Shown here: piece after piece, positions 3,001 to 47,209 of the stretch
Position numbering within the stretch: the first letter of the stretch is position 1
Layout of the letters: every line of letters begins with the position of its first letter
Assembly (NCBI GenBank): GCA_040905925.1
Contig: JBBDQO010000018.1
Location: 1 to 55,649 of the forward strand
Direction of reading: 5' to 3'
Length of the DNA: 55,649 nucleotides
Origin: Acidimicrobiia bacterium
GTDB lineage: Bacteria; Actinomycetota; Acidimicrobiia; Spongiisociales; ZC4RG35
Program-made: the position numbers and the translations under genes
Notes under the pieces: model-generated
The model's database searches: none
Told to the model about the DNA's origin: nothing
The model's input: only the letters and a program-made list of their open reading frames with translations

Positions 3001-4218
3001 GGTGTCATCGAGGAAGACGTACTCGCTACAAGGGTTAGATGCCCGGATACGACCCCCGGCCGGGCTGGTGTGCCACTCGTTGATGGTGGTGTCGAACTGG
3101 AGTCCAGGATCGGCGCAGGCCCAGGCAGCCTCGGCGATCCGGTTCCATAGGTCCCGGGCCTTGACCGTCTTGCGGACGCTGCCGTCGGTGCGGTTGTACA
3201 AGTTCCAGTCGCCGTCATCGAGGACGGTTTGGATGAACTCGTTGGTGACACGAACCGAGTTGTTGGAGTTCTGGCCTGAAACGGTGGCATAGGCGTCGCC
3301 GTTGAAGTCGGCGGGGAGTCCACCGTGGTTGATCAGGACGCGTGCCTTGTCCTCCTCGACCTTCTTCCAGTCGATGAACTTCTCGATGTCGGGATGGTCG
3401 ACGTCGAGGATGACCATCTTGGCGGCGCGACGGGTTGTTCCTCCACTCTTGATCGCGCCCGCGGCCCGGTCACCGATTTTGAGGAAGGACATGACCCCGG
3501 AGGACTTGCCGCCGCCGGAGAGCCGCTCGTTCTCGCCTCGGATCATCGAGAAGTTGGAGCCGGCCCCAGAGCCGAACTTGAAGATGCGAGCTTCGCGGAC
3601 CCAGAGATCCATGATCCCACCCGGGTTCACCAGGTCGTCCTTCACGCTGAGTATGAAACAAGCGTGGGGTGAGGGACGGCTGTAGGAGTCGGGGGAGGCC
3701 TTCATCTCCCCGTCGGCACCGTCGACGTACCAGAAGCCCTGGGCGGGCCCGGTCAATCCGTAGGCCCAGTTGAGCCCGGTGTTGAACCACTGTGGGGAGT
3801 TGGGGGCAGCCATTTGGTTGGCGAGCATGTAGCGGAGCTCGTCCTCGAAGGCGACGGCGTCCTCGGTGGTGGCGAAGTAACCCTCCTTCTCTCCCCAGTG
3901 ACGCCAGGTGCCGGCGAGACGGTTGAACACCTGCTTGGCCGAGCGCTCCGGGCCGATGACCGGCTGGCCGGCCTCGTCGAAGATCTGGTTCCCCTCATCG
4001 TCGAACTGGGGGACACCGGCCTTGCGGAAATACTTCGAGACCATGATGTCGGCGGCGACCTGTGACCACCCCGAGGGGATCTCGGCATCGGTCATCTCGA
4101 AGACGATCGAGCCGTCGGGGTTGGTGATCCGGGAGTCACGACGGGACCATTCGATCTTGTCGTAGGCGTCCTTGCCGGCCTCGGTGAAGCGCCGATCGAT
4201 CCGTAGGCCTTTACTCAT
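1..4218 (-). CDS. nrdJ: Class II (adenosylcobalamin-dependent) ribonucleotide reductase NrdJ. C-terminus lies beyond the window edge. Interrupted in-frame by an intein.
   Basis: Uninterrupted minus-strand frame from ATG 4218-4216 (GAGGAGG RBS at 4233-4227) to position 1. It has no stop, so it is absent from the ORF track. Translation reads MSKGLRIDRRFTEAGKDAYDKIEW...SNPCSEY...TGIEPDF...FISGAISK[intein]TINMPNE...AIYRDGSK. Confidence 0.93.
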   Translation of the reverse strand, partial: MSKGLRIDRRFTEAGKDAYDKIEWSRRDSRITNPDGSIVFEMTDAEIPSGWSQVAADIMVSKYFRKAGVPQFDDEGNQIFDEAGQPVIGPERSAKQVFNRLAGTWRHWGEKEGYFATTEDAVAFEDELRYMLANQMAAPNSPQWFNTGLNWAYGLTGPAQGFWYVDGADGEMKASPDSYSRPSPHACFILSVKDDLVNPGGIMDLWVREARIFKFGSGAGSNFSMIRGENERLSGGGKSSGVMSFLKIGDRAAGAIKSGGTTRRAAKMVILDVDHPDIEKFIDWKKVEEDKARVLINHGGLPADFNGDAYATVSGQNSNNSVRVTNEFIQTVLDDGDWNLYNRTDGSVRKTVKARDLWNRIAEAAWACADPGLQFDTTINEWHTSPAGGRIRASNPCSEYVFLDDTACNLASINLVQFYDDDTGVFDIEAYQHAIRLWTIVLEISVAMAHFPSREIAQGSYDYRTLGLGYANLGSLLMRQGIAYDSDQGRAIAGAMTAILTGFSYATSAEIAEVTGPFPKFSENRESMLRVIRNHRRAAYGHDDYEGVTTKVMAIDPSLCPPDMLEAAHASWDLALERGELHGFRNAQSSVIAPTGTIGLLLDSDTTGIEPDFSLVKFKKLAGGGYFKIVNQSVTPALAHLGYDAAQIKDVVEYIVGTSSLDGAPHINRETLAAKGFDDEDLDKLEKALLSVFELRQAFNVFTFGEATLQRLGFGVDEYTGWEFNLLKALGFTQSEINEANNHICGRQTIEGAPHIRDEHLVVFDTANKNGKYGTRFIHHYGHIKMMAAAQPFISGAISKCVTGETLLTTEDGLVRIASLHRDEAPDSFRDEVMEVASRNGTRKTDAFYYGGVRPVRRVVLRSGHEVTGTPNHRLLVAVDGGLEWRTLEDIKPGEYVATRYGADMWSVLPARFDDFVPSPAYGGQKAVSLPAEMTEDLAFLLGAIVAEGHITPSNWTVHVTNADEGVLQRVSDTWKRVFGVAAPIRRYAGQCPSVQVASKSIVEFLDHLGVGHNAFEKKIPDAMLRSPRSMVLEFLSGLFLDGYISLSSSPKMAICVASVGLMDDLQAVLTNLGIVHGRTAKLNKDNGTTYHEVYAAGVEAQRLARVVPFAESDKSARATELLRRDFSQSTGDVVPGITGPELYRMMPLDRLDEGGRSERLRFAFLNDPRTDRVSRRTLERVAVVPGAELPEWLLEILSDDLHFSPVVEVADAGAREVYDLSVPATHAFVGNGIVNHNTINMPNEITVEDIEEAYRMSWELGLKAMAIYRDGSKAAQPLNSTSDEDEAPALTAAVEAEKAIHWGNLPPGISPTEAYKQGMKPPRFLLPARRNGYNQEARIGGHKVFLRTGEYEDHTLGEIFIDLAKEGATLKGILSCFAIAVSKGLQYGVPLEEFVDTFTFQTFEP
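505..1818 (-). mobile_element. Intein (438 codons) with a LAGLIDADG-type homing endonuclease domain, inserted in nrdJ
   Basis: Host motif ...GAISK is followed by CVTGETLLTTEDG (Cys1). Also present are GTPNHRLL (block B), two LAGLIDADG-like motifs LAFLLGAIVAEGHI and LEFLSGLFLDGYI, and VYDLSVPATHAFVGNGIVNHN followed by Thr+1 (TINMPNE). Confidence 0.9.
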
Positions 4219-4289
4219 GAATAGTGCCTCCTCGCACTTTTTCGTCCTCCCTCAATGGGACGAGGACGAGGTCCATAAATCAGCTCCTA

Positions 4290-4336
4290 CCACAAGATGT
4301 AGTGGTGTGATGGGAAGTGACCACGACATCTGGTAT
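4290..4336. promoter_or_regulatory. Tandem NrdR boxes (operator of nrdJ)
   Basis: CCACAAGATGTAGTGG (4290-4305) and CCACGACATCTGGTAT (4321-4336) both fit the NrdR-box pattern nnaCwAnATnTwGnnn. They start 31 bp apart and lie just downstream of the predicted -10. Confidence 0.7.
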
Positions 4337-4346
4337 GGACTTCATC

Positions 4347-4375
4347 ACTGTAATTACATCCGTGTCATGGGTCAA
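4347..4375 (-). promoter_or_regulatory. SigA-type promoter of nrdJ
   Basis: The minus strand reads TTGACC (4375-4370), a 17-nt spacer, then TACAGT (4352-4347). This sits about 130 nt upstream of the nrdJ ATG. Confidence 0.55.
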
Positions 4376-4628
4376 GCTTTGTTTTTCCACAACCCGGAAA
4401 CGCCTCCTTGAGCGCGAAAATCAACACTCTGATGGGGAAGTGAACGCCACGATCAGCGCTCAGGGGAAGTGGTGGGCACCCTAGATCCGAGGCTGTGCCG
4501 GGGTCCAGTTCCCTGGGTGGAGAGTTTTCGCGAGCGGTCCATGCCGGCGATTCTCAGAGAACCCACATCATTCGCGAGGCTCGCTCCGGCCAGAATCACC
4601 GGGATGCCCACCGTCCTCGTTGTCGACG

Positions 4629-4898
4629 ATGACCGATCGAATCGTTGCGCTCCCTTTGATCCTGCTCCTTGCGGCCTACGCCCGGGTAGGTGGGGTGTCC
4701 GACACCCCGCCCGCCCCAACCGAGACTGCAACGACTGTCGCCTCAACGACGCCCGACGTGACCGAGACCTCGGTTGTGACCTCGACCACTCTCGAGGAGG
4801 GCGCGATCACCGAGGCCGAGGTGGCCGAACTGGAAGCTCTGCTCGACGAAGTCGACGACACCGAGAGCTTGATCGAGGAGCCGTTGCCTGAGGCTTAG
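4629..4898 (+). CDS. Small hypothetical secreted acidic Thr/Glu-rich protein
   Basis: ATG at 4629 (alternative TTG at 4620). There is a hydrophobic N-terminus IVALPLILLLAAYA and high third-position GC. Its 3' end overlaps the dps stop by 4 nt, convergently. Confidence 0.4.
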   Translation: MTDRIVALPLILLLAAYARVGGVSDTPPAPTETATTVASTTPDVTETSVVTSTTLEEGAITEAEVAELEALLDEVDDTESLIEEPLPEA

Positions 4899-5386
4899 GC
4901 CTTGGACTGGACGTGTGCTTCCAGGAACCAGAGGTCCTTGTCAATCTGGCGGGACACTTCGGTGAACAGATCGTTGGTGCTGGTGTCGCCCAGGTCGTCC
5001 GACTCCTCCATGGCGCGCCGGGTGCTGGCCGCGTACTGGGCGATCCGGTCGGCGACCGCCTTGACCGCCTCCATCCCCTCCACCGCCGAGGTCGGGTACT
5101 CAGGGAGTGTCGAGGCTGACGCCGCCTGTCGCACCGTCCCGGTGGCGGTGCCTCCGAGTGTCGTGGCGCGCTCCGCGATCAGGTCCGTGAACTCGAGCAC
5201 GTGGGTCGCGATGTCGTCGAACAGCAGATGGAGCTGGATGAAGTCGGATCCCTTGACGTTCCAATGGGCGTATTTGACCTGGGTGAACAGATCTGTGGTG
5301 TCTGCGAGCTGGCGGTTCAACAGATCCACCAGCTTCATACGAGCACCTTCTGGAATGTCGATGCGGGTCTCGTGGAGTTCGGTCAT
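4895..5386 (-). CDS. dps: Dps-family DNA-binding ferritin-like protein
   Basis: 163 aa. Motifs KYAHWNVKGSDFIQLHLLFDD...DLIAERATTLGG...DLFTEVSRQIDKDLWFLEAH are typical of Dps. Confidence 0.9.
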   Translation of the reverse strand: MTELHETRIDIPEGARMKLVDLLNRQLADTTDLFTQVKYAHWNVKGSDFIQLHLLFDDIATHVLEFTDLIAERATTLGGTATGTVRQAASASTLPEYPTSAVEGMEAVKAVADRIAQYAASTRRAMEESDDLGDTSTNDLFTEVSRQIDKDLWFLEAHVQSKA

Positions 5387-5477
5387 GATGTCATCTCCCG
5401 TTCGCTAGGGGTCTCCCTCGAGGGTAGCTCGCGGTGGATCTTGGGTTTGTGTCGCGGCCGTACGATCGGTCGTCTCG

Positions 5478-5978
5478 TTGCTTTTAGCGGGTGAATGGTC
5501 GTCAGAGCAGATGTTGACCGATAGAGCCATCGGCGGTGCATTCGAGATCTTCTTCAAGGAGATCGAACCCCGTCTCCGTGAGGCGCTTTCCGCCTCCTTG
5601 GGGAGCGACCGGGGCCGGGAAGCCGCGGCCGACGCCCTCGCCTTTGCGTGGGAGCACTGGGACCGGATTCGGGAGATGGACAATCCGACGGGGTATCTCT
5701 ACGTCCTCGGTCGTGATCGGGGTCGGAAAGCTGCCCGACGTCGGGTGGTCACCCTCCTCCCCGTTGACCCGCAGAGGATGCCATGGGTCGAGCCCGGTTT
5801 GGTCGGCGCCCTGGAGCAACTCCCCGAGCGGCAACGGACCGTGGTGGTGTTGCTCTATTGCTTCGAGTGGACGATGGGTGAGACCGCCGCGCTCTTGGGC
5901 CTTTCCAAGTCAACCGTTCAGAGTTACGCCGAGCGCGGGCTTTCCAAGTTGCGAAACCGATTGGGAGTGGAGACATGA
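5478..5978 (+). CDS. ECF-type sigma-70 family RNA polymerase sigma factor
   Basis: Region 2-like AFAWEHWDRIREMDNPTGYLYVLGR and region 4 HTH ERQRTVVVLLYCFEWTMGETAALLGLSKSTVQSYAERGLSKLR. The start is uncertain (TTG 5478 or ATG 5511). Confidence 0.85.
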   Translation: MLLAGEWSSEQMLTDRAIGGAFEIFFKEIEPRLREALSASLGSDRGREAAADALAFAWEHWDRIREMDNPTGYLYVLGRDRGRKAARRRVVTLLPVDPQRMPWVEPGLVGALEQLPERQRTVVVLLYCFEWTMGETAALLGLSKSTVQSYAERGLSKLRNRLGVET

Positions 5979-10676: not shown

Positions 10677-12076
10677 GCCCCCAACCGGTGACCTTTCTCG
10701 GGCGGGCCGAGGCCCTGCTCGGCACCCGTGCCGCGGAGTCGGTCAACCAGGGGATGCTTCATCTGACCGCGATGCGCGACAACGCCGTCTCCGGGTTCCC
10801 CCTCATGGACGCCATGAGGGATCGGGCCCGGGTGATCCGACTTCACGCCCTGGCCAATCTCGACCGTTTGCTGTCCCATTTCGCCGATCAGGTCGTGGCG
10901 CAAGGGGGCGCGGTCCATTTTGCGGCTGACGCGGTTGAGGCCAACCAGATCGTGGCCCGCATCCTGAAAGAGACCGGTTCGCACCTGGTGGTGAAGTCGA
11001 AGTCGATGGTCTCCGAGGAGATCGATTTGAACCGATATCTGGAGGATCGGGGATTCGAGGTGGTGGAGACCGACCTTGGTGAGTTCATCGTTCAACTGGC
11101 CGGCGATACCCCGAGCCACATCGTGGCTCCGATCATCCATCTCGACCGTCACGACGTCGGGACCCTGTTCGCCCAAAAACTCGGGGTCGAGGAAACCTTC
11201 GACCCGACCAGGCTCAACCAAATCGCACGGGACCACTTGCGGGAGACCTTCCTCAAGGCCGACGCCGGGATCTCGGGGGTCAACATCGCGGTTGCCGAAT
11301 CCGGCTCGGTGATCACGGTGACCAACGAGGGGAATGGGCGTCTTTGCACCACCGCCCCCCGGGTTCATATCGCCTTGCTCGGGATGGAGCGTGTTGTCTC
11401 GAGATGGGAGGACGCCTCGGTGATCCTCGAGGTCCTTGCCCGGTCGGCAACCGGGCAGCGACTCACCTCATACACCAATGTCGTGACCGGGCCCCGTCGC
11501 GAATCCGACGAGGACGGTCCCGAGCAACTCCACGTGGTGGTTATCGACAACGGCCGCTCCGAGATCCTGGGCAGCGACACCGCCGAGATTCTCGCCTGCA
11601 TACGGTGTGGCGCTTGTCTCAATGTCTGCCCGGTGTTCCGTACCGTCGGTGGCCATGCCTATGGGTCGATCTACTCGGGCCCGGTTGGCTCGATCGTCAC
11701 CCCCGGGTTGCTAGGGATGGAGCCGTGGTGGGAATTGCCGTATGCCTCCACCCTCTGTGGCGCTTGTGAGGAGGTGTGCCCGATCCGGATCCAGATTCCG
11801 TCGATGTTGTTGAAGTTGAGGGCAAGGGCCGCGGAAGAGGGGAGGCTTCCGGGATGGCTCGAGCGTGGAATGCGTCGTTACACGAATATCGCCGACTCTT
11901 CGAGCAAGTGGGAGAGGGCGAAACGGCTGGTGCACACGCTCACCTGGCCGGTCTCCCGTGGGGGCTGGATCCGCCGTCTCCCGGGGCGGGGTCGGGGTTG
12001 GACCGCCTATCGTGACTTCCCACGCCCGGCCCGAGAATCATTCAGTGCATGGTGGAGGTCCAATCGTGGAGCGTGA
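10673..12076 (+). CDS. lutB: LutB iron-sulfur cluster-binding lactate utilization protein
   Basis: ATGA overlap with lutA. Two ferredoxin motifs, CIRCGACLNVCP and CGACEEVCP. The track's upstream extension to 10583 overlaps lutA. Confidence 0.85.
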   Translation: MSPQPVTFLGRAEALLGTRAAESVNQGMLHLTAMRDNAVSGFPLMDAMRDRARVIRLHALANLDRLLSHFADQVVAQGGAVHFAADAVEANQIVARILKETGSHLVVKSKSMVSEEIDLNRYLEDRGFEVVETDLGEFIVQLAGDTPSHIVAPIIHLDRHDVGTLFAQKLGVEETFDPTRLNQIARDHLRETFLKADAGISGVNIAVAESGSVITVTNEGNGRLCTTAPRVHIALLGMERVVSRWEDASVILEVLARSATGQRLTSYTNVVTGPRRESDEDGPEQLHVVVIDNGRSEILGSDTAEILACIRCGACLNVCPVFRTVGGHAYGSIYSGPVGSIVTPGLLGMEPWWELPYASTLCGACEEVCPIRIQIPSMLLKLRARAAEEGRLPGWLERGMRRYTNIADSSSKWERAKRLVHTLTWPVSRGGWIRRLPGRGRGWTAYRDFPRPARESFSAWWRSNRGA

Positions 12077-12719
12077 AGCGTTCTTGAAGCGAGTCTCCGC
12101 ATCGGCCATGGTGGCGACGCTTCCCCGGCCACCCGAGGTTTCCGAGCGCCTGCCAGACCTCGATCCGGTCGATCTCGTTGGCCTGTTCCGGGCCAGAGCG
12201 CACGAGGAGGCGGTCGTGATCCATGGCCCGGTCGGTCGTCACAGTGTCCCCCGGGCGGTGGAAGGGATCGCCGCCGGACATGCCTGTCAGACCTATATGG
12301 CCTGGGACGATCTCCCCGTTCCCGGTGTCACCGGGGCGCTGACGGGGGCAGGAGTGAACCGGGTCGAGCATCATGTCCCTGAGGAGGGACGAATCCCCCA
12401 CCAACTCGAGTACCAGACGCTCGATCTAGGGGTGACCGGCGCCGACGCCGGTCTTGCCGAGTCGGGGAGTCTGGTCCTATTCCATGGCGAAGGCCGGCCC
12501 CGGATGGCGAGTCTGATCCCTGACGTCCACGTCGCCCTTCTCGAGGTCACTCTGATCGAACGGACCCTCGTGCATTGGGCCCACCGGCACCCGGGAATCC
12601 TGTTCGAGTCGGCCAATGTGGTGGTGGTGACCGGGCCCAGCCGGACCGGGGACATCGAACAGCAATTGAAGTTAGGTGTCCACGGTCCCCGTCACGTTCA
12701 TGTGGTCATGTTCCGATGA
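12066..12719 (+). CDS. lutC: LutC (LUD domain) lactate utilization protein
   Basis: GTG 12066 overlaps the lutB stop. Contains GVTGADAGLAESGSLVL and the conserved lutABC gene order. Confidence 0.75.
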   Translation: MEREAFLKRVSASAMVATLPRPPEVSERLPDLDPVDLVGLFRARAHEEAVVIHGPVGRHSVPRAVEGIAAGHACQTYMAWDDLPVPGVTGALTGAGVNRVEHHVPEEGRIPHQLEYQTLDLGVTGADAGLAESGSLVLFHGEGRPRMASLIPDVHVALLEVTLIERTLVHWAHRHPGILFESANVVVVTGPSRTGDIEQQLKLGVHGPRHVHVVMFR

Positions 12720-13690
12720 GCGGGTTGCGACCACCGCCCAAGGCTGAGGGGCCGACCCGGGTCGCGGCTCGTTTCATCGGTTTGATACTCCTCTTGGCAC
12801 TGGCCGGGACTGCAATCTGGGCGGTCGTGACCAACCAACGGATCGATCTGATCGAAGTGATCACAACCGACGAGTTGGAGCGCACAGCGGTGGTCACCAG
12901 CGACGGGACAGCTCTCAACGTCGTCGAGGGAGGTTCAGGGCCCGTCCCGGTGATCCTGCTTCACGATGTCGACGTGGCCGGCAGCATTCTCTGGGATGGG
13001 GTTGTGACCGCCCTGGGTGCAGATGTCACGACACTCCGAATCGACCTCCCCGGGTTCGGCCTCAGCGACCGGGTGCCGGAGGAGGGAAGCAAACACACCG
13101 TGGCCCTGATGGCGGAAATGGTGAGCGAGGTGGTCGGAGCCCGATTCGAGGGGCCGGTCGTCTTCGCCGGTGTCGGTTTGGGCGGCCAGGTGGCAGCCGA
13201 GACCGCGGTGGCCCACCCTGAGTTGGTATCAGCGCTGGTAATGGTCGACGTCGATTACTACAAGAACGACGGGTGGATGGAATTCCTGGAGAAATCGCCC
13301 TTCTACGGCCGCCCGGTGACGTTTTCCTTTGAGGGCTCCGGCCGGTTTGCCGCCGAGCGGTGGGCCCCGAACTGTGAGGCGGGTGGATGGTGCCCCACGT
13401 TGAAGCAGGTCGAGGCCAGGGATCTTGCCGAAACCCTCCACAACACCTCGGAGTCGATGCGTGCCTTCCGGCGGACCCCGGCGGCGTCGGTGGTCCCGTC
13501 AAAACTCAACGAGATCACGGCACCGACCTACTTCGTCTGGAGTCAAGAGGGCGACGTCCCTCGGGAGTCCGTCGATCTCGTGCTGGAAGCACTCCCCGAA
13601 ATGCAGGTCGAGGTGGTCCCGGTGTGGAAGGCCCATCTCGAAGCTCCTGACGTGGTCGCCAACGCCATCCTCACCGTTGGCACGTCCTGA
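12716..13690 (+). CDS. Membrane-anchored alpha/beta-fold hydrolase
   Basis: ATGA overlap with lutC. N-terminal TM, VILLHDVDVAGS, and a nucleophile-elbow-like motif GVGLGGQ. Confidence 0.7.
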   Translation: MSGLRPPPKAEGPTRVAARFIGLILLLALAGTAIWAVVTNQRIDLIEVITTDELERTAVVTSDGTALNVVEGGSGPVPVILLHDVDVAGSILWDGVVTALGADVTTLRIDLPGFGLSDRVPEEGSKHTVALMAEMVSEVVGARFEGPVVFAGVGLGGQVAAETAVAHPELVSALVMVDVDYYKNDGWMEFLEKSPFYGRPVTFSFEGSGRFAAERWAPNCEAGGWCPTLKQVEARDLAETLHNTSESMRAFRRTPAASVVPSKLNEITAPTYFVWSQEGDVPRESVDLVLEALPEMQVEVVPVWKAHLEAPDVVANAILTVGTS

Positions 13691-13692
13691 GC

Positions 13693-14661
13693 TCAGGGGA
13701 GAAGGATCACCTTGCCGGTGGAGGACCGGCTCTCCAGAGCGCGGTGCGCGTCTGCCGCTTCGGCAAGTGGGAACTCGGCACCGATCCGGACCCGGAGCCG
13801 GTCATCCCCAATCCAACGAAACAGGTCGGAGGCGCGTCTCAACAACTCCGCTCGGTCACCTACGTAGTGACGCATGGTGGGCCGGGTAAGGTACAGCGAG
13901 CCCTTGGCGGCGAGGATCAACGGCGAGATATCGGGGGGCCGCCCCGAGGCGTTGCCGAAAGTAACCATCATCCCTCGGGGCCGGATCAGGTCCAGGCCCT
14001 GCTCGAAAGTGGCCGCACCAACCCCGTCGTAAACCACGTCCATGGCGTTTTGGCCGGCGATGGCCTCGACTGCCGTCTTGAAGTCGGTGTCGGTATAGAC
14101 GATCACATGGTCGGCCCCTGCTGCCCTACTCAGCTCAGCCTTCTCTTGGCTTCCGACTGTGGTGAACACCTCGGCGTCTCTGAGCTTGGCGATCTGAGTG
14201 AGCAGGAGCCCAACCCCACCCGCCCCGGCGTGGATCAGACATCGGTCCCCGGCGGATAGGGGGAAGGTGTCGGAGGCGAGGAAATGAGCGGTCAGCCCTT
14301 GGAGCAGGACCGCGGCGGCAGTCTTCGAGTCCACACCCTCCGGCAACGGGACGGCCCGCCCGGCGGGCAGCGCGATTCTCTCGGCATACGAGGCCCTCGC
14401 ATCAGCCCACCCAACCCGGCCACCGACATCGAAGCCATCGACGTTCGAGCCAACCGCGAGGACAATGCCTGCGCCCTCCAGGCCCGGGATCATGGGAAGC
14501 TCCAAGTCGTAGAAGCCGGAGCGGTGATAGATGTCGATGAAGTTGACCCCGGCTGCCTCCACCTCGACGACGAGATCATCGAGCCCTGGGCTGGGGTCGG
14601 CAACCTCGGAATACACGAGTTCCTCTGCTCCACCCACCTTCGAGACGACGATCGCCCGCAC
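13693..14661 (-). CDS. NADPH:quinone oxidoreductase (zeta-crystallin MDR family)
   Basis: AGVNFIDIYHRSGFY and IHAGAGGVGLLLTQIAK. The start is probably GTG 14661 (VRAIVV...). The track start TTG 14679 is an alternative. Confidence 0.85.
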   Translation of the reverse strand: MRAIVVSKVGGAEELVYSEVADPSPGLDDLVVEVEAAGVNFIDIYHRSGFYDLELPMIPGLEGAGIVLAVGSNVDGFDVGGRVGWADARASYAERIALPAGRAVPLPEGVDSKTAAAVLLQGLTAHFLASDTFPLSAGDRCLIHAGAGGVGLLLTQIAKLRDAEVFTTVGSQEKAELSRAAGADHVIVYTDTDFKTAVEAIAGQNAMDVVYDGVGAATFEQGLDLIRPRGMMVTFGNASGRPPDISPLILAAKGSLYLTRPTMRHYVGDRAELLRRASDLFRWIGDDRLRVRIGAEFPLAEAADAHRALESRSSTGKVILLP

Positions 14662-40828: not shown

Positions 40829-42190
40829 ATGAGCGAGCCAACCTCCGAAAGCCCCGAGATCACCGAGACCCTGGAACTCTGGGTCGCCGGAACCGAGGAG
40901 CCCGAGTTCAGCCCCACCGACGAGGGCGAACAGGAGATCTCTGACCACGAGTCGGAGGTTCGTCTCGATGAGCAATTCGGCCGGGTGGTGGAGGACGATT
41001 ACGTGTTCGACGACGGGATCGACGAGGGGGAGCGGATGATCCTGAACATGGGCCCCCAGCATCCTTCGACCCACGGCGTGCTCAGGCTCCAGATCGAGCT
41101 CGAGGGCGAGATCATCCGGCGTACCAAGCCGATCATCGGTTATCTCCACACCGGGATGGAGAAGACGGGGGAGCAGCTCAACTTCTCCCAGGGTGGGACC
41201 AATGTGACCCGAATGGACTATCTGGCTCCGTTCCACAACGAGCTGGCCTATTCCCTTGCAGTGGAGCGGTTGCTCGGGATCGAGGTTCCTCCCCGGGCGG
41301 CCGCGATCAGAGTCCTTCTCACCGAGTTGAACCGGTGCTCTTCCCACCTGGTGGCCCTGGCCACCAACGGAATGGACATCGGCGCCGTCTCCATGATGAT
41401 CTATGGGTTCAGGGAGAGGGAGCAGATCCTCGCCTTCTTCGAGAAGACCACCGGGCTACGGATGAACCACAACTTCATCCGTCCCGGTGGGGTGGCCGCA
41501 GACCTGGCGCCGGGTTGGAAGGACGATGTGGCAGCGATCCTGGTTGAGCTGCCGAAACGTGTGCACCAGTACGACGACCTGCTGAAGGACAACCCGATCT
41601 GGCAGGCTCGGACCCGTGGTGTCGGGGTCATCACCGCAGAGGAGGCGATTGCCTACGGGATCACCGGGCCGCCGCTACGGGCAACAGGGGTCTCCTGGGA
41701 CCTGCGCAAGGCATTCCCCTACTCCGGGATAGAGAACTACGAGTTCGAGGTGGCTGTCGGAGAGCACGGCGACGTCTACGACCGCTACCGGATCCGGATC
41801 GACGAGATCCACGAGTCGTTGAAGATCGTGGAGCAGGTGATGGACTCGATGCCCAAGGGTGACTTCCGGGTGGACGACCGCAAGGTGACACCACCGCCCC
41901 GGGCCCGCATCGATGAGTCGATGGAGGCCCTGATCCATCACTTCAAGCTGTTCACGGAGGGGTTCAAGGTGCCGCCCGGCGAGACATACGTGGCGGTGGA
42001 GTCACCGAGAGGGGAACTGGGCTGTTATCTGGTCTCCGACGGAGAGGCCCGCCCCTACCGGATGCACACCCGGGCGCCTTCGTTCACCAACCTCCAGGCG
42101 TTGCCTATCGCCATGGCCGACTCGCTTATGGCCGACACCGTGGCCACCATCGCCTCTATGGACCCGGTGATGGGGGACGTCGACCGCTAG
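40829..42190 (+). CDS. nuoD: NADH-quinone oxidoreductase subunit D
   Basis: MILNMGPQHPSTHGVLRL, GYLHTGMEK and DPVMGDVDR at the C-terminus. Confidence 0.95.
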   Translation: MSEPTSESPEITETLELWVAGTEEPEFSPTDEGEQEISDHESEVRLDEQFGRVVEDDYVFDDGIDEGERMILNMGPQHPSTHGVLRLQIELEGEIIRRTKPIIGYLHTGMEKTGEQLNFSQGGTNVTRMDYLAPFHNELAYSLAVERLLGIEVPPRAAAIRVLLTELNRCSSHLVALATNGMDIGAVSMMIYGFREREQILAFFEKTTGLRMNHNFIRPGGVAADLAPGWKDDVAAILVELPKRVHQYDDLLKDNPIWQARTRGVGVITAEEAIAYGITGPPLRATGVSWDLRKAFPYSGIENYEFEVAVGEHGDVYDRYRIRIDEIHESLKIVEQVMDSMPKGDFRVDDRKVTPPPRARIDESMEALIHHFKLFTEGFKVPPGETYVAVESPRGELGCYLVSDGEARPYRMHTRAPSFTNLQALPIAMADSLMADTVATIASMDPVMGDVDR

Positions 42191-42193
42191 CAC

Positions 42194-42229
42194 CGCTTAC
42201 CTGAGGTACCTGGCGCCATATATGGCGCC
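42194..42229. repeat. Left 36-bp inverted repeat bounding the nuoD-nuoE cassette
   Basis: CGCTTACCTGAGGTACCTGGCGCCATATATGGCGCC is the reverse complement of 46502-46537 at 34 of 36 positions. It contains the palindrome GGCGCCATATATGGCGCC. Confidence 0.9.
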
Positions 42230-42253
42230 ACCTCGACATGGTTGCCCAGGAAC

Positions 42254-42673
42254 TCAGGATGTGAGAGCGAGCTGCCTCAACATCGCCGCGGTGTCCCAAT
42301 ACGACAGGATGGAGTCGATCTGGCCGTCGACGAAATCGATACGGAACGCTCCGTTGGTCCGGTATTCCTTGCCCGTTGGGTCGTGGGGTCCCATCGATCC
42401 AAGCATCGTCCCTCCATGTGAGATCTCGGCGAAGATGGTCGTGGCGTCGGACACTGTGTCGAGCTCTTCCATGCGCATGTCGGGAAAGGTCGTGAAGATG
42501 GTCTGCCAGTGCTTTCTCGCCTCTTCCTTGCCTTTCGCTGGCGGCATGGCGGCCCCAGCTGCACTCTGGATGGTGATGCTCTCACTGACCATCGTCAGCA
42601 TCTGGTCGATGTCGTGGGCGCGGTGAGCCGCTATCCAGCGACTGAAAACTTCGAGATTCTGTCTGTCGGACAT
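42254..42673 (-). CDS. SnoaL-like / NTF2-fold (ester cyclase-like) protein
   Basis: 139 aa. NLEVFSRWIAAHRAHDIDQMLTMVSE...FAEISHGGT...FRIDFVDGQI. Confidence 0.65.
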   Translation of the reverse strand: MSDRQNLEVFSRWIAAHRAHDIDQMLTMVSESITIQSAAGAAMPPAKGKEEARKHWQTIFTTFPDMRMEELDTVSDATTIFAEISHGGTMLGSMGPHDPTGKEYRTNGAFRIDFVDGQIDSILSYWDTAAMLRQLALTS

Positions 42674-42734
42674 TGTTCCTCCTTGGCTTCGTCCTCAAAG
42701 GGAACATACGACCAGATTCCTGACGTGTCAACTA

Positions 42735-42763
42735 CTGTTCTGGCAATTACTGATGCGGAACAG
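42735..42763. promoter_or_regulatory. Candidate MarR operator (inverted repeat) in the divergent intergenic region
   Basis: CTGTTC (42735-42740), 17 nt, then GAACAG (42758-42763), between the SnoaL-like and MarR genes. Confidence 0.3.
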
Positions 42764-42782
42764 AGCTGCGTAGGATGACGGG

Positions 42783-43238
42783 ATGAAGTCGCCACTGACC
42801 GCCGAAGCCCTCGACGCATGGCGCGCGATGCTGTTCGCCAGTTCGCATGTGGTTCAGGCCCTCGGCGCCGACATGGAGGAAGACCACGGTCTGCCCATCA
42901 CCTGGTTCGATGTCCTGGGCAGGCTGCGCCAGGCCCCTGAAGGTCGGCTTCGCATGCACGAGCTGGAGGAGCAGTCAGTCTTCACCAGGAGCGGTATCAC
43001 CAGGCTCGCTGATCGCATCGAGAATGCAGGCTTGATCGAAAGGGTGAGGTCCTCGTCTGACCGGCGTGGGGTCTACCTCAGGATCACCAACGCCGGGATC
43101 GAGAAGCTCGATGAGATCTGGCCGGATCACCAGCGGAGTATCTGGCAGCACTTCGCCCGCCACCTCGACGCCTCCGACCTTAGGGCGTTGCAACGCGCTG
43201 CAGAGAAGATCAAGGCAGCCCGAGAGGAATCACGGTAG
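42783..43238 (+). CDS. MarR family transcriptional regulator
   Basis: Winged-helix segment FDVLGRL...MHELEEQSVFTRSGITRLADRIENAGLIERVRSSSDRRGVYLRITNAG. Confidence 0.85.
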   Translation: MKSPLTAEALDAWRAMLFASSHVVQALGADMEEDHGLPITWFDVLGRLRQAPEGRLRMHELEEQSVFTRSGITRLADRIENAGLIERVRSSSDRRGVYLRITNAGIEKLDEIWPDHQRSIWQHFARHLDASDLRALQRAAEKIKAAREESR

Positions 43239-43288
43239 AGCTGGGATCGATCAGAGCCAGCCTTGACGATCGAGACGGAAGTCGACTG

Positions 43289-43636
43289 CTAGAGGTCAGG
43301 CGGCAGCGCGGCGAGGCCGGCGGCCGTCATTTGTCCCTCGTCAACCATCCGGCGGGCGATCTTGCGATTCGGTTCCGACCAATTCGAGCCAGGACGTCGC
43401 GGGGCGAAGCGGATTGCCCAGCGCTCGTCATCGATCCGTTGGCCATGAAAGTCGACCCAGCCGTGACGGAGCGCCGTTTCCTGCAACTCGGCCAGGGTGA
43501 CCGTCTGTTTGCCAGATCCCTTCTTGTATAGGGCGACCACGATCTCCCGCGCGCTTTCTCCATGAGCGTCAAGCCATTGGTCGAACTCGGCCTGGCTGGT
43601 GATGAGGATGGACTGTGAGGTGTCTCTAGGGCTCAT
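43289..43636 (-). CDS. YdeI/OmpD-associated family protein
   Basis: VALYKKGSGKQTVTLAELQETALRHGWVD...RFAPRRPGSNWSEPNRKIARRMVDEGQMTAAG. Start taken at MSPRD (43636). Confidence 0.7.
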   Translation of the reverse strand: MSPRDTSQSILITSQAEFDQWLDAHGESAREIVVALYKKGSGKQTVTLAELQETALRHGWVDFHGQRIDDERWAIRFAPRRPGSNWSEPNRKIARRMVDEGQMTAAGLAALPPDL

Positions 43637-43649
43637 GGCGATTCCGGCC

Positions 43650-44612
43650 TCACTCGACGGCTGGGACCGTGGAGTTCGGCACCGACTCCTCATCGGCCAG
43701 ACTCGGGAATCCAAGCGAAGGGGGCGGCATCGGATTCAGACCCCCCGCCCCGTCGTACACCGAAAGATCGAGCGGATACAGGTTGGGAATGATCTGCCCG
43801 TATATGTCGCGTTCGAACAAAACGGTTCCTTCGCCGAAGTCATACGGGGTGTCGACAGGGAGGTAGTCGACCTCCTCATAGGCGTATGTGGGCAACGTGA
43901 GCAACGGCCGCCCTTCGCTGTCGAACAGAAGCACCTCAACCGGATTGCCATCCATGTCGTACGCATAGACGTTGTTGATCGAGTTTCCCTCGGCAGTGGT
44001 CAAGCGATCGAAATACGGGTAAGGATCGACGACTTCCGTGTCTGTATACACCGGGTTGAGGAGGGTGCCCACCAGTGCCCACCCGGCGATGAACGAGAAC
44101 GTCATCGACCCGAGCCTGCGGAGCGGGACCTCGGGTCCCTGGTCGAGCCAGATCGAGAGGGCTGTTGCCATTACGACGAGGATCAGACCGGTCAATGAGC
44201 TGGAGCCGATGGCAGGGACGGGGAAGCGCCGGAAGATCTGACCCGTATCGGCCAAAGCCCAGGCGCAGATCACCAGCCAGCCTCGGGCCCAGATCCAGAC
44301 CGGGCGCACGGTGGACCAGTGTGTAAATCGGGCGAGTCTCTGTGCCCTGTCGTCCAGTCGGTCCCGGAGCCGACGGACGGCGTCCCATCTCGGGAGGGGA
44401 GTCGGTTCCTCCAATCCGGCGCTGCTCCGGAATTCGGCTGCGAAGGCCTCGGGATCGCCCAACTCGGCCTCGATTCGACCGTCATCCAGTTCAGCCAGGT
44501 GTGCCTCCAGGTCTTGAACGATCTCCTCCCGCTCCTCCTCTGGCAGGTCGGAGAGCTGGTCTCGAACCTGTTCCAGATAGCGAGCCTTGGCGGCGGACAA
44601 CGTGATGCTCAT
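43650..44612 (-). CDS. HAAS/DUF1700-type membrane protein (PadR partner) with a C-terminal extracytoplasmic domain
   Basis: ARYLEQVRDQLSDLPEEEREEIVQDLEAHLAE, followed by TM helices. 4-nt overlap with the PadR gene. Confidence 0.65.
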   Translation of the reverse strand: MSITLSAAKARYLEQVRDQLSDLPEEEREEIVQDLEAHLAELDDGRIEAELGDPEAFAAEFRSSAGLEEPTPLPRWDAVRRLRDRLDDRAQRLARFTHWSTVRPVWIWARGWLVICAWALADTGQIFRRFPVPAIGSSSLTGLILVVMATALSIWLDQGPEVPLRRLGSMTFSFIAGWALVGTLLNPVYTDTEVVDPYPYFDRLTTAEGNSINNVYAYDMDGNPVEVLLFDSEGRPLLTLPTYAYEEVDYLPVDTPYDFGEGTVLFERDIYGQIIPNLYPLDLSVYDGAGGLNPMPPPSLGFPSLADEESVPNSTVPAVE

Positions 44613-44938
44613 TCCTCCTCCTCTCCCTGCAGCAGACCATTCATGGTGTCGGCAAACCCAATCCAGGACTTGGTCGACTGCTCCAGCATGTCGATTCCGG
44701 CGCCGTTCAGCCCGTAGTACTTGCGGGCCGGCCCCTCCTCCGAGGGGACGATCTCGGATGTCAGGTACCCACCACCGAACAAACGGCGGAGTGTTCCGTA
44801 TACAGAGGCGTCGCCGACCCCCTCGAAGCCCGACTCACGAAGCTGCCGGACGAGGTCGTAGCCGTAGGTGCGACCACGGCGCAGGACTGCCAGGACGGCC
44901 GTGTCCAACACTCCTTTGAGCAGCTGGGTCTGATCCAT
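44609..44938 (-). CDS. PadR family transcriptional regulator
   Basis: LLKGVLDTAVLAVLRRGRTYGYDLVRQL...ASVYGTLRRL...RKYYGLN. Start taken at MDQTQ (44938). Confidence 0.88.
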   Translation of the reverse strand: MDQTQLLKGVLDTAVLAVLRRGRTYGYDLVRQLRESGFEGVGDASVYGTLRRLFGGGYLTSEIVPSEEGPARKYYGLNGAGIDMLEQSTKSWIGFADTMNGLLQGEEEE

Positions 44939-44952
44939 ATGGAACCTCCTTA

Positions 44953-44995
44953 GGTAGTGCGCTCCAGACACTACCACGCAATGCGGAGTAGTGCG
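44953..44995. promoter_or_regulatory. Candidate PadR operator
   Basis: Perfect inverted repeat GGTAGTG (44953-44959) / CACTACC (44969-44975), plus a third GTAGTGCG half-site (44988-44995) directly upstream of the PadR start. Confidence 0.4.
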
Positions 44996-44997
44996 TT

Positions 44998-46305
44998 TTA
45001 CGGCCAGCCCTGGTGGTGGAGCCGGAACTCACGCACCTCGTCGGTAGTCGACGGGCCCCAGGTCATGGTGGGCACCGGGTGCTCGACCCGGGCCGCCTCC
45101 AACTCGTCAGCGGTGAAGCCGACCGGCTTCCGGATCGGGTCGATCCCGTACAGGTTCGCCGCATTCCAGCCGAGGATCTTGGCCTTGATCGCCCGGGTCA
45201 GCTCTGGATAGCCGTATCGCTCACGGAGGTCGGCCGGAATCTGGAACGCCCGAAAGGCGTCGATCTGGCCCTGGGGCGAGCCGTAGAAGATGGAGTCGGT
45301 CCCCCAGAGCACATTGTCCTCCCCGAAGGCGACCAGAAGCTTGCCCAGGACGTGGGCGGCCTCATCGGGCCGCCGGAGCAGATGCCACCAGGTGGAGCCG
45401 ATCTCGGCATAGACGTTCTCCCCGGGGCCGATCCCCGCGCCGCGCACCGAGGCCACCAGACGATTGACGCCGACGCCGGCATTGCCTTCGGTGAACGGGC
45501 CCTCACGTTGCGCCACCTCGAACCCGGAGTGATAGACCACGAACTTGACGTTGGGATGGGCTCGTGCCGCCGGGCCGATGTCCTCGGGTGACCCATACCG
45601 GGCCCGGTCCGAAAGCCCCTTATGCACGAAGAGCAAAGGGTTGCCGAGAGCCTCGACCTGGTCGAGGAAGAGATTGCCCACCTGGGGTAGGTCGGGGTTG
45701 TGGTCGTCGAGCCACCAATGGATCCCCGACGGGAAATGGGTGAAGGTCTTCCAACCTGCGATCTCATTCTCGGCGACGGTGCGTTCCATCTCCTCGAGGA
45801 CCGACTCGATCGATGCAATCTGGGGAAGAGCGAGTGCGTTGACCACCACTCGGTCGTCGCCGGAGAGGTTTTGGACCAGGCGTCTGGTCTCCTCCATCAC
45901 CTGGGGCGAGAGCGGGCTTCCCTCGGGGAGGATGGGGAGACCGGAGAGGGCGACCATCGTGGTGTCGGAGCGGACGAAGACTTCTTCCAGGAAATGATTC
46001 ATAGAGAAGCAGGCCCGTGGGTCGTCCTCGTCCTGGCATTGGGCCTGGGGGAATTGCCGGCCCCAGAACCAGTCGCCACGGGTGGAAGGATCGAGGTCAT
46101 ACTCGAGAAGGTGGCCCTGGACGTCGAACACGAACTGTGAGGGGCCGAGCACCGCCCGTGCCGCGTCGGTGTCATGACGGGAGATGGGATCGAACGGATA
46201 CCAGAGACCTGCCGGCACTCCGGCTGCTCTGGCCACTGCGGCGTCGATTGCGGCAAGCGACACCGCCAAGGCACAGGCCGACCGCAGGAACTGACGTCGG
46301 CTCAT
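44998..46305 (-). CDS. Tat-exported amidohydrolase-2 (TIM-barrel metal hydrolase) family protein
   Basis: MSRRQFLRSACALAVSLAA (twin-arginine signal), FDVQGH and VLWGTDS. The ORF stays open up to GTG 46521, which lies inside the right repeat, so the true start is uncertain. Confidence 0.75.
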   Translation of the reverse strand: MSRRQFLRSACALAVSLAAIDAAVARAAGVPAGLWYPFDPISRHDTDAARAVLGPSQFVFDVQGHLLEYDLDPSTRGDWFWGRQFPQAQCQDEDDPRACFSMNHFLEEVFVRSDTTMVALSGLPILPEGSPLSPQVMEETRRLVQNLSGDDRVVVNALALPQIASIESVLEEMERTVAENEIAGWKTFTHFPSGIHWWLDDHNPDLPQVGNLFLDQVEALGNPLLFVHKGLSDRARYGSPEDIGPAARAHPNVKFVVYHSGFEVAQREGPFTEGNAGVGVNRLVASVRGAGIGPGENVYAEIGSTWWHLLRRPDEAAHVLGKLLVAFGEDNVLWGTDSIFYGSPQGQIDAFRAFQIPADLRERYGYPELTRAIKAKILGWNAANLYGIDPIRKPVGFTADELEAARVEHPVPTMTWGPSTTDEVREFRLHHQGWP

Positions 46306-46501
46306 CCCGGTCCGGACGATGGCTTCCTCGACCCCTGAACGAGCCAGGTTCTCCGCCTCTCGCCGGACCGGCGTGATCGGCTCGGGCTCGTACTCACCGT
46401 TGGAGCACTGTCCAAAGGCGATAGGGAGACCAGGGTCTTCGTCGCGCCACGATCCGGCCATCGCCTTGATTCTGCCCGGGTTCTGCGTTCTGTGTTCGAG
46501 G

Positions 46502-46537
46502 GGCGCCACATATGGCGCCACGTACCTCAGGTAAGCG
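46502..46537. repeat. Right 36-bp inverted repeat bounding the nuoD-nuoE cassette
   Basis: GGCGCCACATATGGCGCCACGTACCTCAGGTAAGCG, the reverse complement of 42194-42229 with 2 mismatches. Confidence 0.9.
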
Positions 46538-46585
46538 TTTGTGGGTTTCGCTACGCCATCAGGGGCTACCTATTCTCCGGCACCG

Positions 46586-47209
46586 ATGAGCCATTGGTCG
46601 GAGGCCACCCAGGACCGCGCCCGAGAGATCATCTCCCGTTATCCGATGAAGAGGTCGGCCGTCATGCCTCTTCTCTACCTGGCGATGGGCGAGGAGGGAC
46701 ATCTCAGCAACGAGGGGATGGAGGAGGTGGCTCGCTGGGTGGACATCACCCCGGCCCAGGTCCAAGCCGTTGCCAGCTTCTACACGATGTACAAGAGGGA
46801 GCGAACCGGGCGATATCTGATCTCGTGCTGCACCTCCATCTCCTGCATGCTGCTCGGCGCCGACGACGTGCTCCACGCCATCGAGGACGAGTCGGGGGTG
46901 CCTCATGGAGAGACCGATGACAAGGGCCTGCTCTCGGTGGAGCACGTGGAGTGCATCGGGGCCTGCGGTGGGGCACCCGCGGTCCAGGTCAACTACGAGC
47001 TGATCGAGGGAGTGACCCCGGATCGAGCCCGCGACCTCGTGCGCTGGCTGAGCGGAGCGAGACCGGCTGTGGTCAACACCGAAGAGATGCAAGAGCTGTT
47101 CGGCGGTGTCAAGAGCTTCGACTGGGGAGTGAAGGAGGAAGTCGGGGCTATCGGCCCCTACCCGGCGTTCCAGCACTTTGGAACCGTTGGAAGGGAGGAT
47201 CTTCCTTGA
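46586..47209 (+). CDS. nuoE: NADH-quinone oxidoreductase subunit E
   Basis: YPMKRSAVMPLLYLA, ASFYTMY, CTSISCML and ECIGACGGAP. Alternative start GTG 46541. Confidence 0.9.
   Translation: MSHWSEATQDRAREIISRYPMKRSAVMPLLYLAMGEEGHLSNEGMEEVARWVDITPAQVQAVASFYTMYKRERTGRYLISCCTSISCMLLGADDVLHAIEDESGVPHGETDDKGLLSVEHVECIGACGGAPAVQVNYELIEGVTPDRARDLVRWLSGARPAVVNTEEMQELFGGVKSFDWGVKEEVGAIGPYPAFQHFGTVGREDLP

Follow-up and report, generated by a model that had tools for sequence, protein, structure and literature searches.

Arms of a dispersed palindromic repeat bracket a remodelled gene slot between nuoD and nuoE in Acidimicrobiia

In this study, we asked how six non-respiratory genes came to lie between nuoD and nuoE in the otherwise tightly packed complex I operon of an Acidimicrobiia bacterium, and what the inverted repeats at the two ends of this segment are. 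The locus is part of assembly GCA_040905925.1 (contig JBBDQO010000018.1, positions 1 to 55,649), and this whole 55.6-kb stretch is referred to as the window. A first-pass annotation, made from the window alone, had described the segment as one 4.3-kb insertion into an intergenic palindrome, the halves of which became its ends. The inverted repeats are instead two opposite copies, here called arms, of a palindromic repeat of ~55 nucleotides (nt) that is dispersed in a clade of Acidimicrobiia and resembles repetitive extragenic palindromic (REP) sequences and miniature inverted-repeat transposable elements (MITEs). The best explanation for the locus, which we regard as fairly probable, is that the arms bracket a permissive slot between nuoD and nuoE that has been inherited vertically and remodelled stepwise. 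What appeared to be a mobile cassette in complex I would then be a dispersed repeat marking a long-lived gene slot, into which native genes (an amidohydrolase gene, the gene for formate-tetrahydrofolate ligase (FTHFS) and a PadR-HAAS pair) have been reshuffled over time. The features of the junction, in window coordinates, are as follows.

40829..42190, + strand: nuoD (453 amino acids [aa]; TIGR01962 NuoD, E=2e-164)
42193..42241, + strand: left arm of the dispersed repeat (family profile, nhmmer, E=2e-15; alignment of 150 arms)
42254-42673, - strand: SnoaL-like gene (Pfam SnoaL, E=7.5e-17)
42783-43238, + strand: MarR-family regulator gene (Pfam)
43289-43714, - strand: small gene without family assignment (open reading frame)
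43650-44612, - strand: gene for a HAAS-domain membrane protein, paired with PadR (Pfam HAAS)
44609-44977, - strand: PadR-family regulator gene (Pfam PadR)
44998-46461, - strand: Amidohydro_2 amidohydrolase gene (487 aa; Pfam)
46482..46538, - strand: right arm of the dispersed repeat, inverted (nhmmer, E=8e-17)
46544..46579, + strand: promoter-like motif before nuoE (conserved in 20 loci; putative function)
46586..47209, + strand: nuoE (207 aa; NCBIfam NuoE, Pfam 2Fe-2S_thioredx, gene calls in relatives)

The six genes between nuoD and nuoE were confirmed, as was the pair of 36-bp inverted repeats: CGCTTACCTGAGGTACCTGGCGCCATATATGGCGCC at 42194-42229 recurs as its reverse complement, with 2 mismatches (34/36), at 46502-46537. 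These are the only two copies of the 36-mer in the window, and 100 shuffles yielded none. The self-complementary core GGCGCC-AYATAT-GGCGCC is present in both, and RNA folding of either arm forms the hairpin, H. The left arm begins 3 nt past the nuoD stop codon (TAG, 42188-42190) and consists of box A (CGCTTACCTGAGGTAC, 42194-42209), H (GGCGCCATATATGGCGCC, 42212-42229) and a degenerate B' tail; the right arm consists of B (~46486-46501), H (46502-46519) and A' (46522-46537). Each repeat is ~50-57 nt long rather than 36, because the family profile matches 42193-42241 and 46482-46538.

Across the family, an arm has the layout CGCT-TACCTGAGGTA-C-NN-(GGCGCC-N6-GGCGCC hairpin)-N5-ACAGAGAA, and the profile consensus reads cgCtTACCTGAGGTACgTaGCGCCAtATaTGGCGCta.g..gaCA.AGAA. 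When one genome per species was scanned with the pattern TACCTGAGGTANNNNGCGCCNNAT, at least 115 stretches were found, nearly all in metagenome-assembled genomes (MAGs) of Acidimicrobiia type. Among the matches listed, 23 stretches belonged to SMAG_U14487 (the genome of locus L085), 18 to M3-S_maxbin2.bin.379 and 13 to SMAG_U7928, the nearest relative, whose amidohydrolase is 97% identical to that of the window. The family profile recovered 188 arms in 121 loci, including 60 convergent pairs, 44 of which measured 97-139 bp. The usual form is a convergent pair of ~117-129 bp with two H cores, in the order A-H-B', variable centre, B-H-A', and the two ends of the window segment are exactly the two halves of such an ordinary unit. 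The first-pass annotation was therefore right in placing the segment between two halves of a palindromic element; however, the palindrome is not private to this junction but dispersed genome-wide in relatives, a finding which that annotation had itself named as contrary to its proposal, and the postulated duplication of the palindrome core is unneeded, since the ordinary 117-129-bp unit already has two cores.

Both parts of the arm are conserved. Over 150 arms, 86% of the cells of hairpin H are paired and changes on both sides occur in 8 of 9 pairs; these pairing values were reached by 0/500 shuffles, and slid registers pair at only 23-49%. In L011, GGGCCC replaces GGCGCC in both arms. Hardly any variation is seen in the 11-nt palindromic box TACCTGAGGTA. 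G-T pairs outnumber A-C pairs in the stem (120 versus 75); this bias was considered as a discriminator between an RNA and a DNA role and was rejected as too weak. Many units lie 4-15 nt past a stop codon, and a few back-to-back arm pairs share a box (L163, L196 and L197). The centres of short units are unrelated between copies and frequently consist of a GC-rich hairpin between ACAGAGAA and TTCTCTGT, an arrangement that may resemble a two-way terminator.

No Rfam match was found in 41900-46900 at E<=1, and the searched literature held nothing relevant on REP elements in Acidimicrobiia or on DUF559 with inverted repeats; matched in neither source, the repeat family is previously undescribed. 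It defines a new family for uncultured Acidimicrobiia, one that breaks metagenome assemblies and can mislead annotation. One close likeness is to the REP sequences and bacterial interspersed mosaic elements of Enterobacteria and Pseudomonas and to REPtrons: a short imperfect palindrome with a GC-rich stem-loop, the structure of which is kept through compensatory changes; tens or more extragenic copies per genome (shown for the relatives), often just past stop codons; and solo copies, inverted pairs with variable linkers and back-to-back forms. As to differences, no REP-associated tyrosine transposase (RAYT, a Y1 transposase) was seen within 1.5 kb of the arms in ~115 fetched stretches; the arms are longer (~55 nt) and carry the extra 11-nt palindromic box outside the hairpin, and the sole enzyme-like gene found between them is an AbiEi_4-DUF559 nuclease gene at one conserved locus.

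Some minor observations concern single arms. In the left arm, the 2-nt linker between box and hairpin reads CC in the window (42210-42211) and GG in the ~100%-identical contig L005 (2092-2093). Five MAGs (L141, L171, L183, L189 and L200) share an orthologous locus at which a solo arm lies just upstream of a tRNA gene and of the TACAAT-like element that belongs to this gene. The same arms are present in MAGs titled "uncultured Acidobacteriota" (L093, L098, L103, L185 and others; CAVVCY01, CAWENM01 and CAVRWT01); the nuoD end of L185 is ~96% identical at the protein level to the Acidimicrobiia-type locus L003, and the label of these MAGs is probably wrong.

The NuoD homologues assign the window to uncultured Acidimicrobiia; an exact match to its NuoD was absent from public assemblies. 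The history of the junction was followed in 80 metagenome loci around NuoD relatives and in contigs of selected homologues, in which the distance from nuoD to nuoE was measured. P0001 (locus L001), the top-scoring NuoD homologue, was rejected as a close relative; it lies on an AT-rich contig, is only 64% identical and has a rank that is an artefact of a fused 683-aa product. Where NuoD identity is 62-86%, nuoD and nuoE mostly overlap or abut, typically at GACCGATGAGC (an ATGA overlap), which is the ancestral state. Genes have thus been inserted between nuoD and nuoE, as first proposed. In the clade with NuoD identity of at least 87%, the same two arms are present and their content differs.

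L005 (NuoD ~100%): the same six genes as the window
L002 (NuoD 94%): amidohydrolase and a 25-codon SnoaL remnant
L007 (NuoD 93%): FTHFS and amidohydrolase
L003 and L004 (NuoD 92%): FTHFS, + strand
L085-L088 (NuoD 90-91%): HAAS-PadR-amidohydrolase
L011 and L016 (NuoD 87-89%): amidohydrolase alone (1.6 kb)
L185: a homologue of the small unnamed gene alone (484 bp), 62% identical

The last of these had been considered as an independent cassette and was rejected, since it is the same nuoD-nuoE junction in another MAG. The alternatives between the arms measure 0.5-3.2 kb. In all relatives, the left arm follows the nuoD stop codon after 3 nt and the right arm precedes the nuoE motif by 6 nt. In L003, FTHFS takes the place of the amidohydrolase and the inner B and B' segments are kept on both sides; the cargo at nuoD-nuoE changes within conserved B/B' segments. 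L012 and L013 have neither a cassette nor a palindrome at the junction and keep the nuoE motif, and the empty site with one palindrome that the first-pass annotation envisaged was found in no relative. Nor was its suggestion of inversion upheld: an inverted segment was never seen, the amidohydrolase being opposite to nuo in 13 of the 13 loci that have both on the contig.

The content of the slot differs in age. The amidohydrolase gene is present at the nuoD-nuoE junction in every locus of at least 81% identity with readable context, and its identity of 81-99% tracks that of NuoD and NuoE: values of 94, 93 and ~82% correspond to 94, 93 and 87-91% for NuoD and to 96, 92 and 83-85% for NuoE. Because its divergence is in step with that of its neighbours, it is old and has been inherited vertically, and no other gene has been in the slot for longer. 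Homologues with 67-77% identity are located elsewhere, at unrelated loci that have no arms. The PadR-HAAS pair is also found in relatives with NuoD identity of 88-96%. SnoaL is confined to three loci (the window, L005 and L063), although remnants of its 3' end persist in L002 and L148, and MarR has the same distribution minus the remnants; both genes are late additions. From these distributions, the order of build-up reads as amidohydrolase, then PadR-HAAS, then SnoaL-MarR, with deletions in other lineages, and the window would represent the fullest version of an old, stepwise mosaic of native genes, not a recent 4.3-kb insertion. Between the window and L005, the small unnamed gene and HAAS are 93-94% identical and their neighbours 98-100%; therefore, the middle of the slot either evolves faster or has recombined.

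FTHFS lies in the slot in two lineages (L003:11530-13281 and L007:~11500-13250). In SMAG_U14487 it is at another locus (L118:~3700-5560), with arms 12 nt past its stop codon, and its presence at two arm-linked loci hints that arms take part in gene relocation. Since the amidohydrolase and FTHFS genes occupy other loci elsewhere, the slot holds native genes that moved rather than obviously foreign DNA. In agreement with this, the contrast in composition, which the first-pass annotation had proposed to compute, is small: GC content at third codon positions is 0.74-0.81 in the cassette genes and 0.81-0.90 in the nuo genes, and overall GC also differs little.

How the operon could tolerate such a slot is suggested by the sequence directly upstream of nuoE. 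The motif GGTTTCRC-N17-CCTAWTCTCCG-N6-ATG is invariant, with fixed spacing, in 20 loci that otherwise differ in intergenic sequence, and it is also present at spacer junctions without a cassette (L012, L013 and L034). In the window it consists of GGTTTCGC (46544-46551), 17 nt and CCTATTCTCCG (46569-46579), and it ends 6 nt ahead of the ATG at 46586, most likely the start of nuoE because gene calls in relatives give a 207-aa product. The -10 elements of actinobacteria are of the TANNNT type, and TATTCT (46571-46576) fits this type; its position 9 nt ahead of the start codon implies a nearly leaderless nuoE mRNA. A similar layout, TAAGCT followed after 7 nt by GTG, precedes nuoA. Conservation of this motif suggests that nuoE-N may have its own promoter and transcript, so that the spacer would tolerate insertions, and it makes separate transcription of nuoE-N, as raised in the first-pass annotation, plausible. 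Consensus scans of 42000-46800 returned no terminator and a single sigma-70-like site, on the minus strand at 42731-42703, unlinked to the repeats. The operon is broken exactly at the seam where nuoA-D meets the N-module genes nuoEFG of complex I, an enzyme of modular origin (PMC3144371). A tightly packed operon would thus have been split at this seam and gained a second promoter-like element, and we predict that, in this clade, nuoA-D and nuoE-N are transcribed separately.

At other loci, arm units appear to behave as insertions. In L124, a 225-bp unit (893-1117) lies between convergent genes, and the orthologous site in L050 (7340-7372) is 9 bp; in L204, arms and an alpha/beta-hydrolase gene occupy a site that in L202 measures ~106 bp and has no arms. 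These are the two filled-versus-empty comparisons, both between distant genomes. A TGA inside the TACCTGAGGTA box of L124 appears to act as the new stop codon of the downstream gene. Target-site duplications were sought by eye at unit ends and at the two filled-versus-empty sites; none was found at more than 20 short units or at these two sites, and none was seen flanking the window segment, as had been reported before. No transposase gene was found between or beside the arms, and no enzyme family recurs within 1.5 kb of them in the ~115 fetched stretches. When the open reading frames in this range were clustered all-against-all in search of a recurrent mobilising enzyme, the clusters comprised housekeeping paralogues only, for example ABC transporters. 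The earlier statement that the slot holds no recombinase was borne out, as Pfam and NCBIfam gave no integrase, transposase or recombinase among its genes.

Outside the nuo junction, genes lie between convergent arms at ~4 independent loci (the DUF559 locus, L118, L172 and L204), and a general tendency of arms to bracket cargo is weakly supported. At the first of these loci, arms 1.04 kb apart (L095:1-1044, L119:6791-7837 and L128:4881-5926) enclose a gene for a 305-aa protein with an AbiEi_4 winged helix and a DUF559/MTES_1575 nuclease domain. This gene was examined as a copy of an autonomous element and rejected: its three copies share flanking genes, so they represent one orthologous locus and give no evidence of mobility. 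The nuoD-nuoE cargo was never seen with arms at another locus, and the amidohydrolase gene is never flanked by arms away from nuoD-nuoE.

We propose the following history. The junction would first have been an ATGA overlap; a short spacer that carried a promoter-like element for nuoE would have followed. An arm pair holding the amidohydrolase gene would then have been acquired by the common ancestor of the clade in which NuoD identity is at least 87%, and the interior of this pair would since have served as a permissive slot: the PadR-HAAS pair was presumably added, the small unnamed gene together with it or afterwards, and SnoaL and MarR later, and in other lineages genes may have been deleted or FTHFS moved in. 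The non-coding arms would have persisted as bookends next to essential genes. Ordinary illegitimate or ectopic recombination would bring genes in and remove them at the centre of a long palindrome, a place that is neutral and prone to breakage, with nuoA-D and nuoE-N transcribed separately and hairpin H placed at the transcript boundaries. The dispersal of the repeat family, the mosaic and vertically inherited content, the ancestral overlap and the conserved nuoE motif each emerge from comparison with relatives and underlie this scheme.

Several observations weigh against this proposal. A plain short unit at nuoD-nuoE was found in no relative; therefore, the order in which the pair came first and the cargo later is undemonstrated, and the arms and the amidohydrolase could have come together. 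Solo arms account for 68 of the 188, and the two arms of the window could be independent insertions. The window itself holds only these two arms in 55 kb, so that the evidence for dispersal comes from relatives and not from the genome at hand. The ~4 cargo-bracketing loci stand beside 3 close pairs in other orientations. A second palindrome family takes the two positions of the arms in some relatives (L053, L007 and L063), and the promoter call rests on conservation only, the sigma-70 scan having given no flag there. The missing plain unit, the common solo arms and the few cargo loci elsewhere leave room for an origin like that of mobile insertion cassettes (MICs) or for two independent arms.

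The second palindrome family is a 46-nt near-perfect hairpin, TTCCTAATGCAGGGCGTCACG-TAYA-CGTGACGCCCTGCATTAGGAA, located just after nuoD and just before the nuoE motif (L053:11356-11401 and 14330-14372; L063:963-1008 and ~4085; L007:11371-11415; degenerate in L014), and it also occurs between PadR and the amidohydrolase gene. In L053, the outer halves of its two copies are perfect and the inner halves share variants of their own. Its presence at the arm positions may point to targeted replacement or to selection that favours a hairpin at these sites. Furthermore, a GC-rich double-hairpin mini-element of ~50 nt (TTCTCCCTCCGAAGGGGGAGTACCGGCGTAGCCGGGGAGGGGGGACCTCCT) sits exactly in the loop of the left H in L086 (~11385-11450) and likewise in L087-L089, and the uninterrupted loop is seen in L085; this mini-element is probably repeated too, because contigs end inside it (L008, L009 and L019). 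In a sister clade, in which NuoD is 83-85% identical, the junction is filled with small hairpins in tandem, for example CCGATGAGATCGG and GAAGAGCGATGNAATCGCTCTTC, that directly follow the nuoD stop codon (L026, L031, L032, L021, L024, L020, L045, L040 and L028), and they look derived from the old overlap of nuoD stop and nuoE start, GACCGATGAG.

Four other explanations of the arms were weighed, in addition to the single insertion. One explanation may be that the arms are kept for regulation and that their membership in a repeat family is secondary. They would either bind a protein as operators, through the TACCTGAGGTA box, or form RNA hairpins that terminate and insulate the transcript of nuoA-D as well as the divergent promoters of the amidohydrolase gene and nuoE. 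The near invariance of the palindromic box and the compensatory changes in the hairpin would be expected, and so would the fixed positions of the arms and the frequent substitution of another palindrome family there; many arms elsewhere also lie just past stop codons, beside terminator-like hairpins flanked by ACAGAGAA and TTCTCTGT. However, the nuoE motif is kept in L012 and L013, the junctions of which are free of palindromes; H lacks a U-tract and no terminator was returned by the scan, Rfam gave no match and the excess of stem G-T over A-C pairs is modest. On balance, we consider this explanation rather unlikely.

Alternatively, the arms could be the terminal inverted repeats of a non-autonomous element moved in trans, which carried in the amidohydrolase gene and later passengers as a unit. 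Such MICs, in which ends like those of an insertion sequence flank passenger genes (e.g., MIC231 and qnrS2-MIC), are an established concept (PMC3129680, PMC5444012). MITEs and MICs share with the arms the ~120-bp non-coding units with inverted ends, the larger versions that hold unrelated passengers and the presence or absence of units between genomes. Inverted ends around passenger genes without a transposase, arms and cargo that are absent together (L204 versus L202), units present or absent at orthologous sites and an invariant box of the kind expected of an enzyme recognition site all agree with this explanation, as do the two settings of FTHFS, with arms after it at its other locus (L118) and on both sides of it at nuoD-nuoE (L003). 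In contrast to MITEs and MICs, the arms show no target-site duplication at more than 20 units and no homologous centres, no parent insertion sequence was found, and the nuoD-nuoE cargo is vertically inherited and stationary. No transposase-like open reading frame recurs near the arms, the three arm-flanked AbiEi_4-DUF559 genes are one orthologous locus, the amidohydrolase gene is flanked by arms nowhere else, and cargo is swapped inside conserved B/B' segments. An origin of this kind therefore seems unlikely to us.

A bolder possibility is that the arms are the ends of an undescribed gene-relocating element without a transposase of its own, the box and hairpin of which are read by an enzyme from elsewhere that moves native genes into palindrome centres; the AbiEi_4-DUF559 nuclease encoded between arms is a candidate for this enzyme. 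If this were so, such an element would move native single genes (amidohydrolase, FTHFS and hydrolases), even into an essential respiratory operon. We regard this possibility as doubtful.

It can also be envisioned that the palindromes are att-like sites for an integron-like or Xer-like enzyme encoded elsewhere, with circular cassettes recombining at the hairpin centre and leaving hybrid sites. The type-2 palindromes of L053, with their perfect outer halves and variant-sharing inner halves, recall attL and attR; the ~50-nt element of L086-L089 sits exactly in the loop of H, and H has a 6-6-6 layout. Integron attC sites are similarly imperfect palindromes of 60-140 bp with a variable centre, and they accompany varied single genes without their own recombinase. 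However, the FTHFS swap in L003 kept the inner B and B' segments on both sides, and therefore the exchange was not at H. Moreover, there is no integrase or recombinase gene, and in particular no integron integrase, in the slot and no recurrent enzyme gene near other arms, and the window genes lie between the halves of a palindrome rather than beside it, without a same-orientation array. Recombination of this kind is very improbable, and integron cassettes, integrase islands and invertible segments are all rejected as descriptions of the slot. The single 4.3-kb insertion that split a unique intergenic hairpin and duplicated its core, for which the 34/36 complementarity, the shared self-complementary core and the two copies in the window had spoken, is scarcely credible, since related genomes contain the arm at more than 100 further sites, an intact unit already has two cores, the arms enclose subsets or alternatives of 0.5-3.2 kb in relatives, the divergence of the amidohydrolase follows that of NuoD and NuoE, and no relative has a single-hairpin empty site, the cassette-free L012 and L013 being without such a palindrome.

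Variable gene slots between core genes (genomic islets) are known, as are the mycobacterial interspersed repetitive units inside operons. The slot that we propose is reminiscent of both in its fixed position between conserved genes, its strain-variable genes, its small repeats and its turnover by gain and loss. It differs from them in that it breaks a compact nuo operon at the nuoA-D/nuoEFG seam, with a promoter-like element dedicated to nuoE.

As for the individual genes, the labels SnoaL, MarR, HAAS, PadR and amidohydrolase given by the first-pass annotation were upheld by Pfam; that of "YdeI-like" for the small gene at 43289-43714 was not, as this gene has no Pfam or NCBIfam match, even when matches up to E<=10 are included. 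Its true start is probably the ATG at 43636, giving 115 aa. For the amidohydrolase, the most likely start codon is the ATG at 46461, because ~100 homologues have 487 aa, and the gene therefore stops short of the repeat. Its twin-arginine motif, SRRQFLRS, comes only at residues 53-60 (window 46305-46461, - strand), a layout that is unusual for a twin-arginine translocation (Tat) signal (TAT_signal, E=0.13), and the 52 N-terminal residues ahead of the motif are conserved at the protein level among relatives. NuoD carries an acidic N-terminal extension of ~67 residues (window 40829-41030) that lies outside the NuoD models, the TIGR01962 match beginning at residue 68, and this extension is retained in close relatives.

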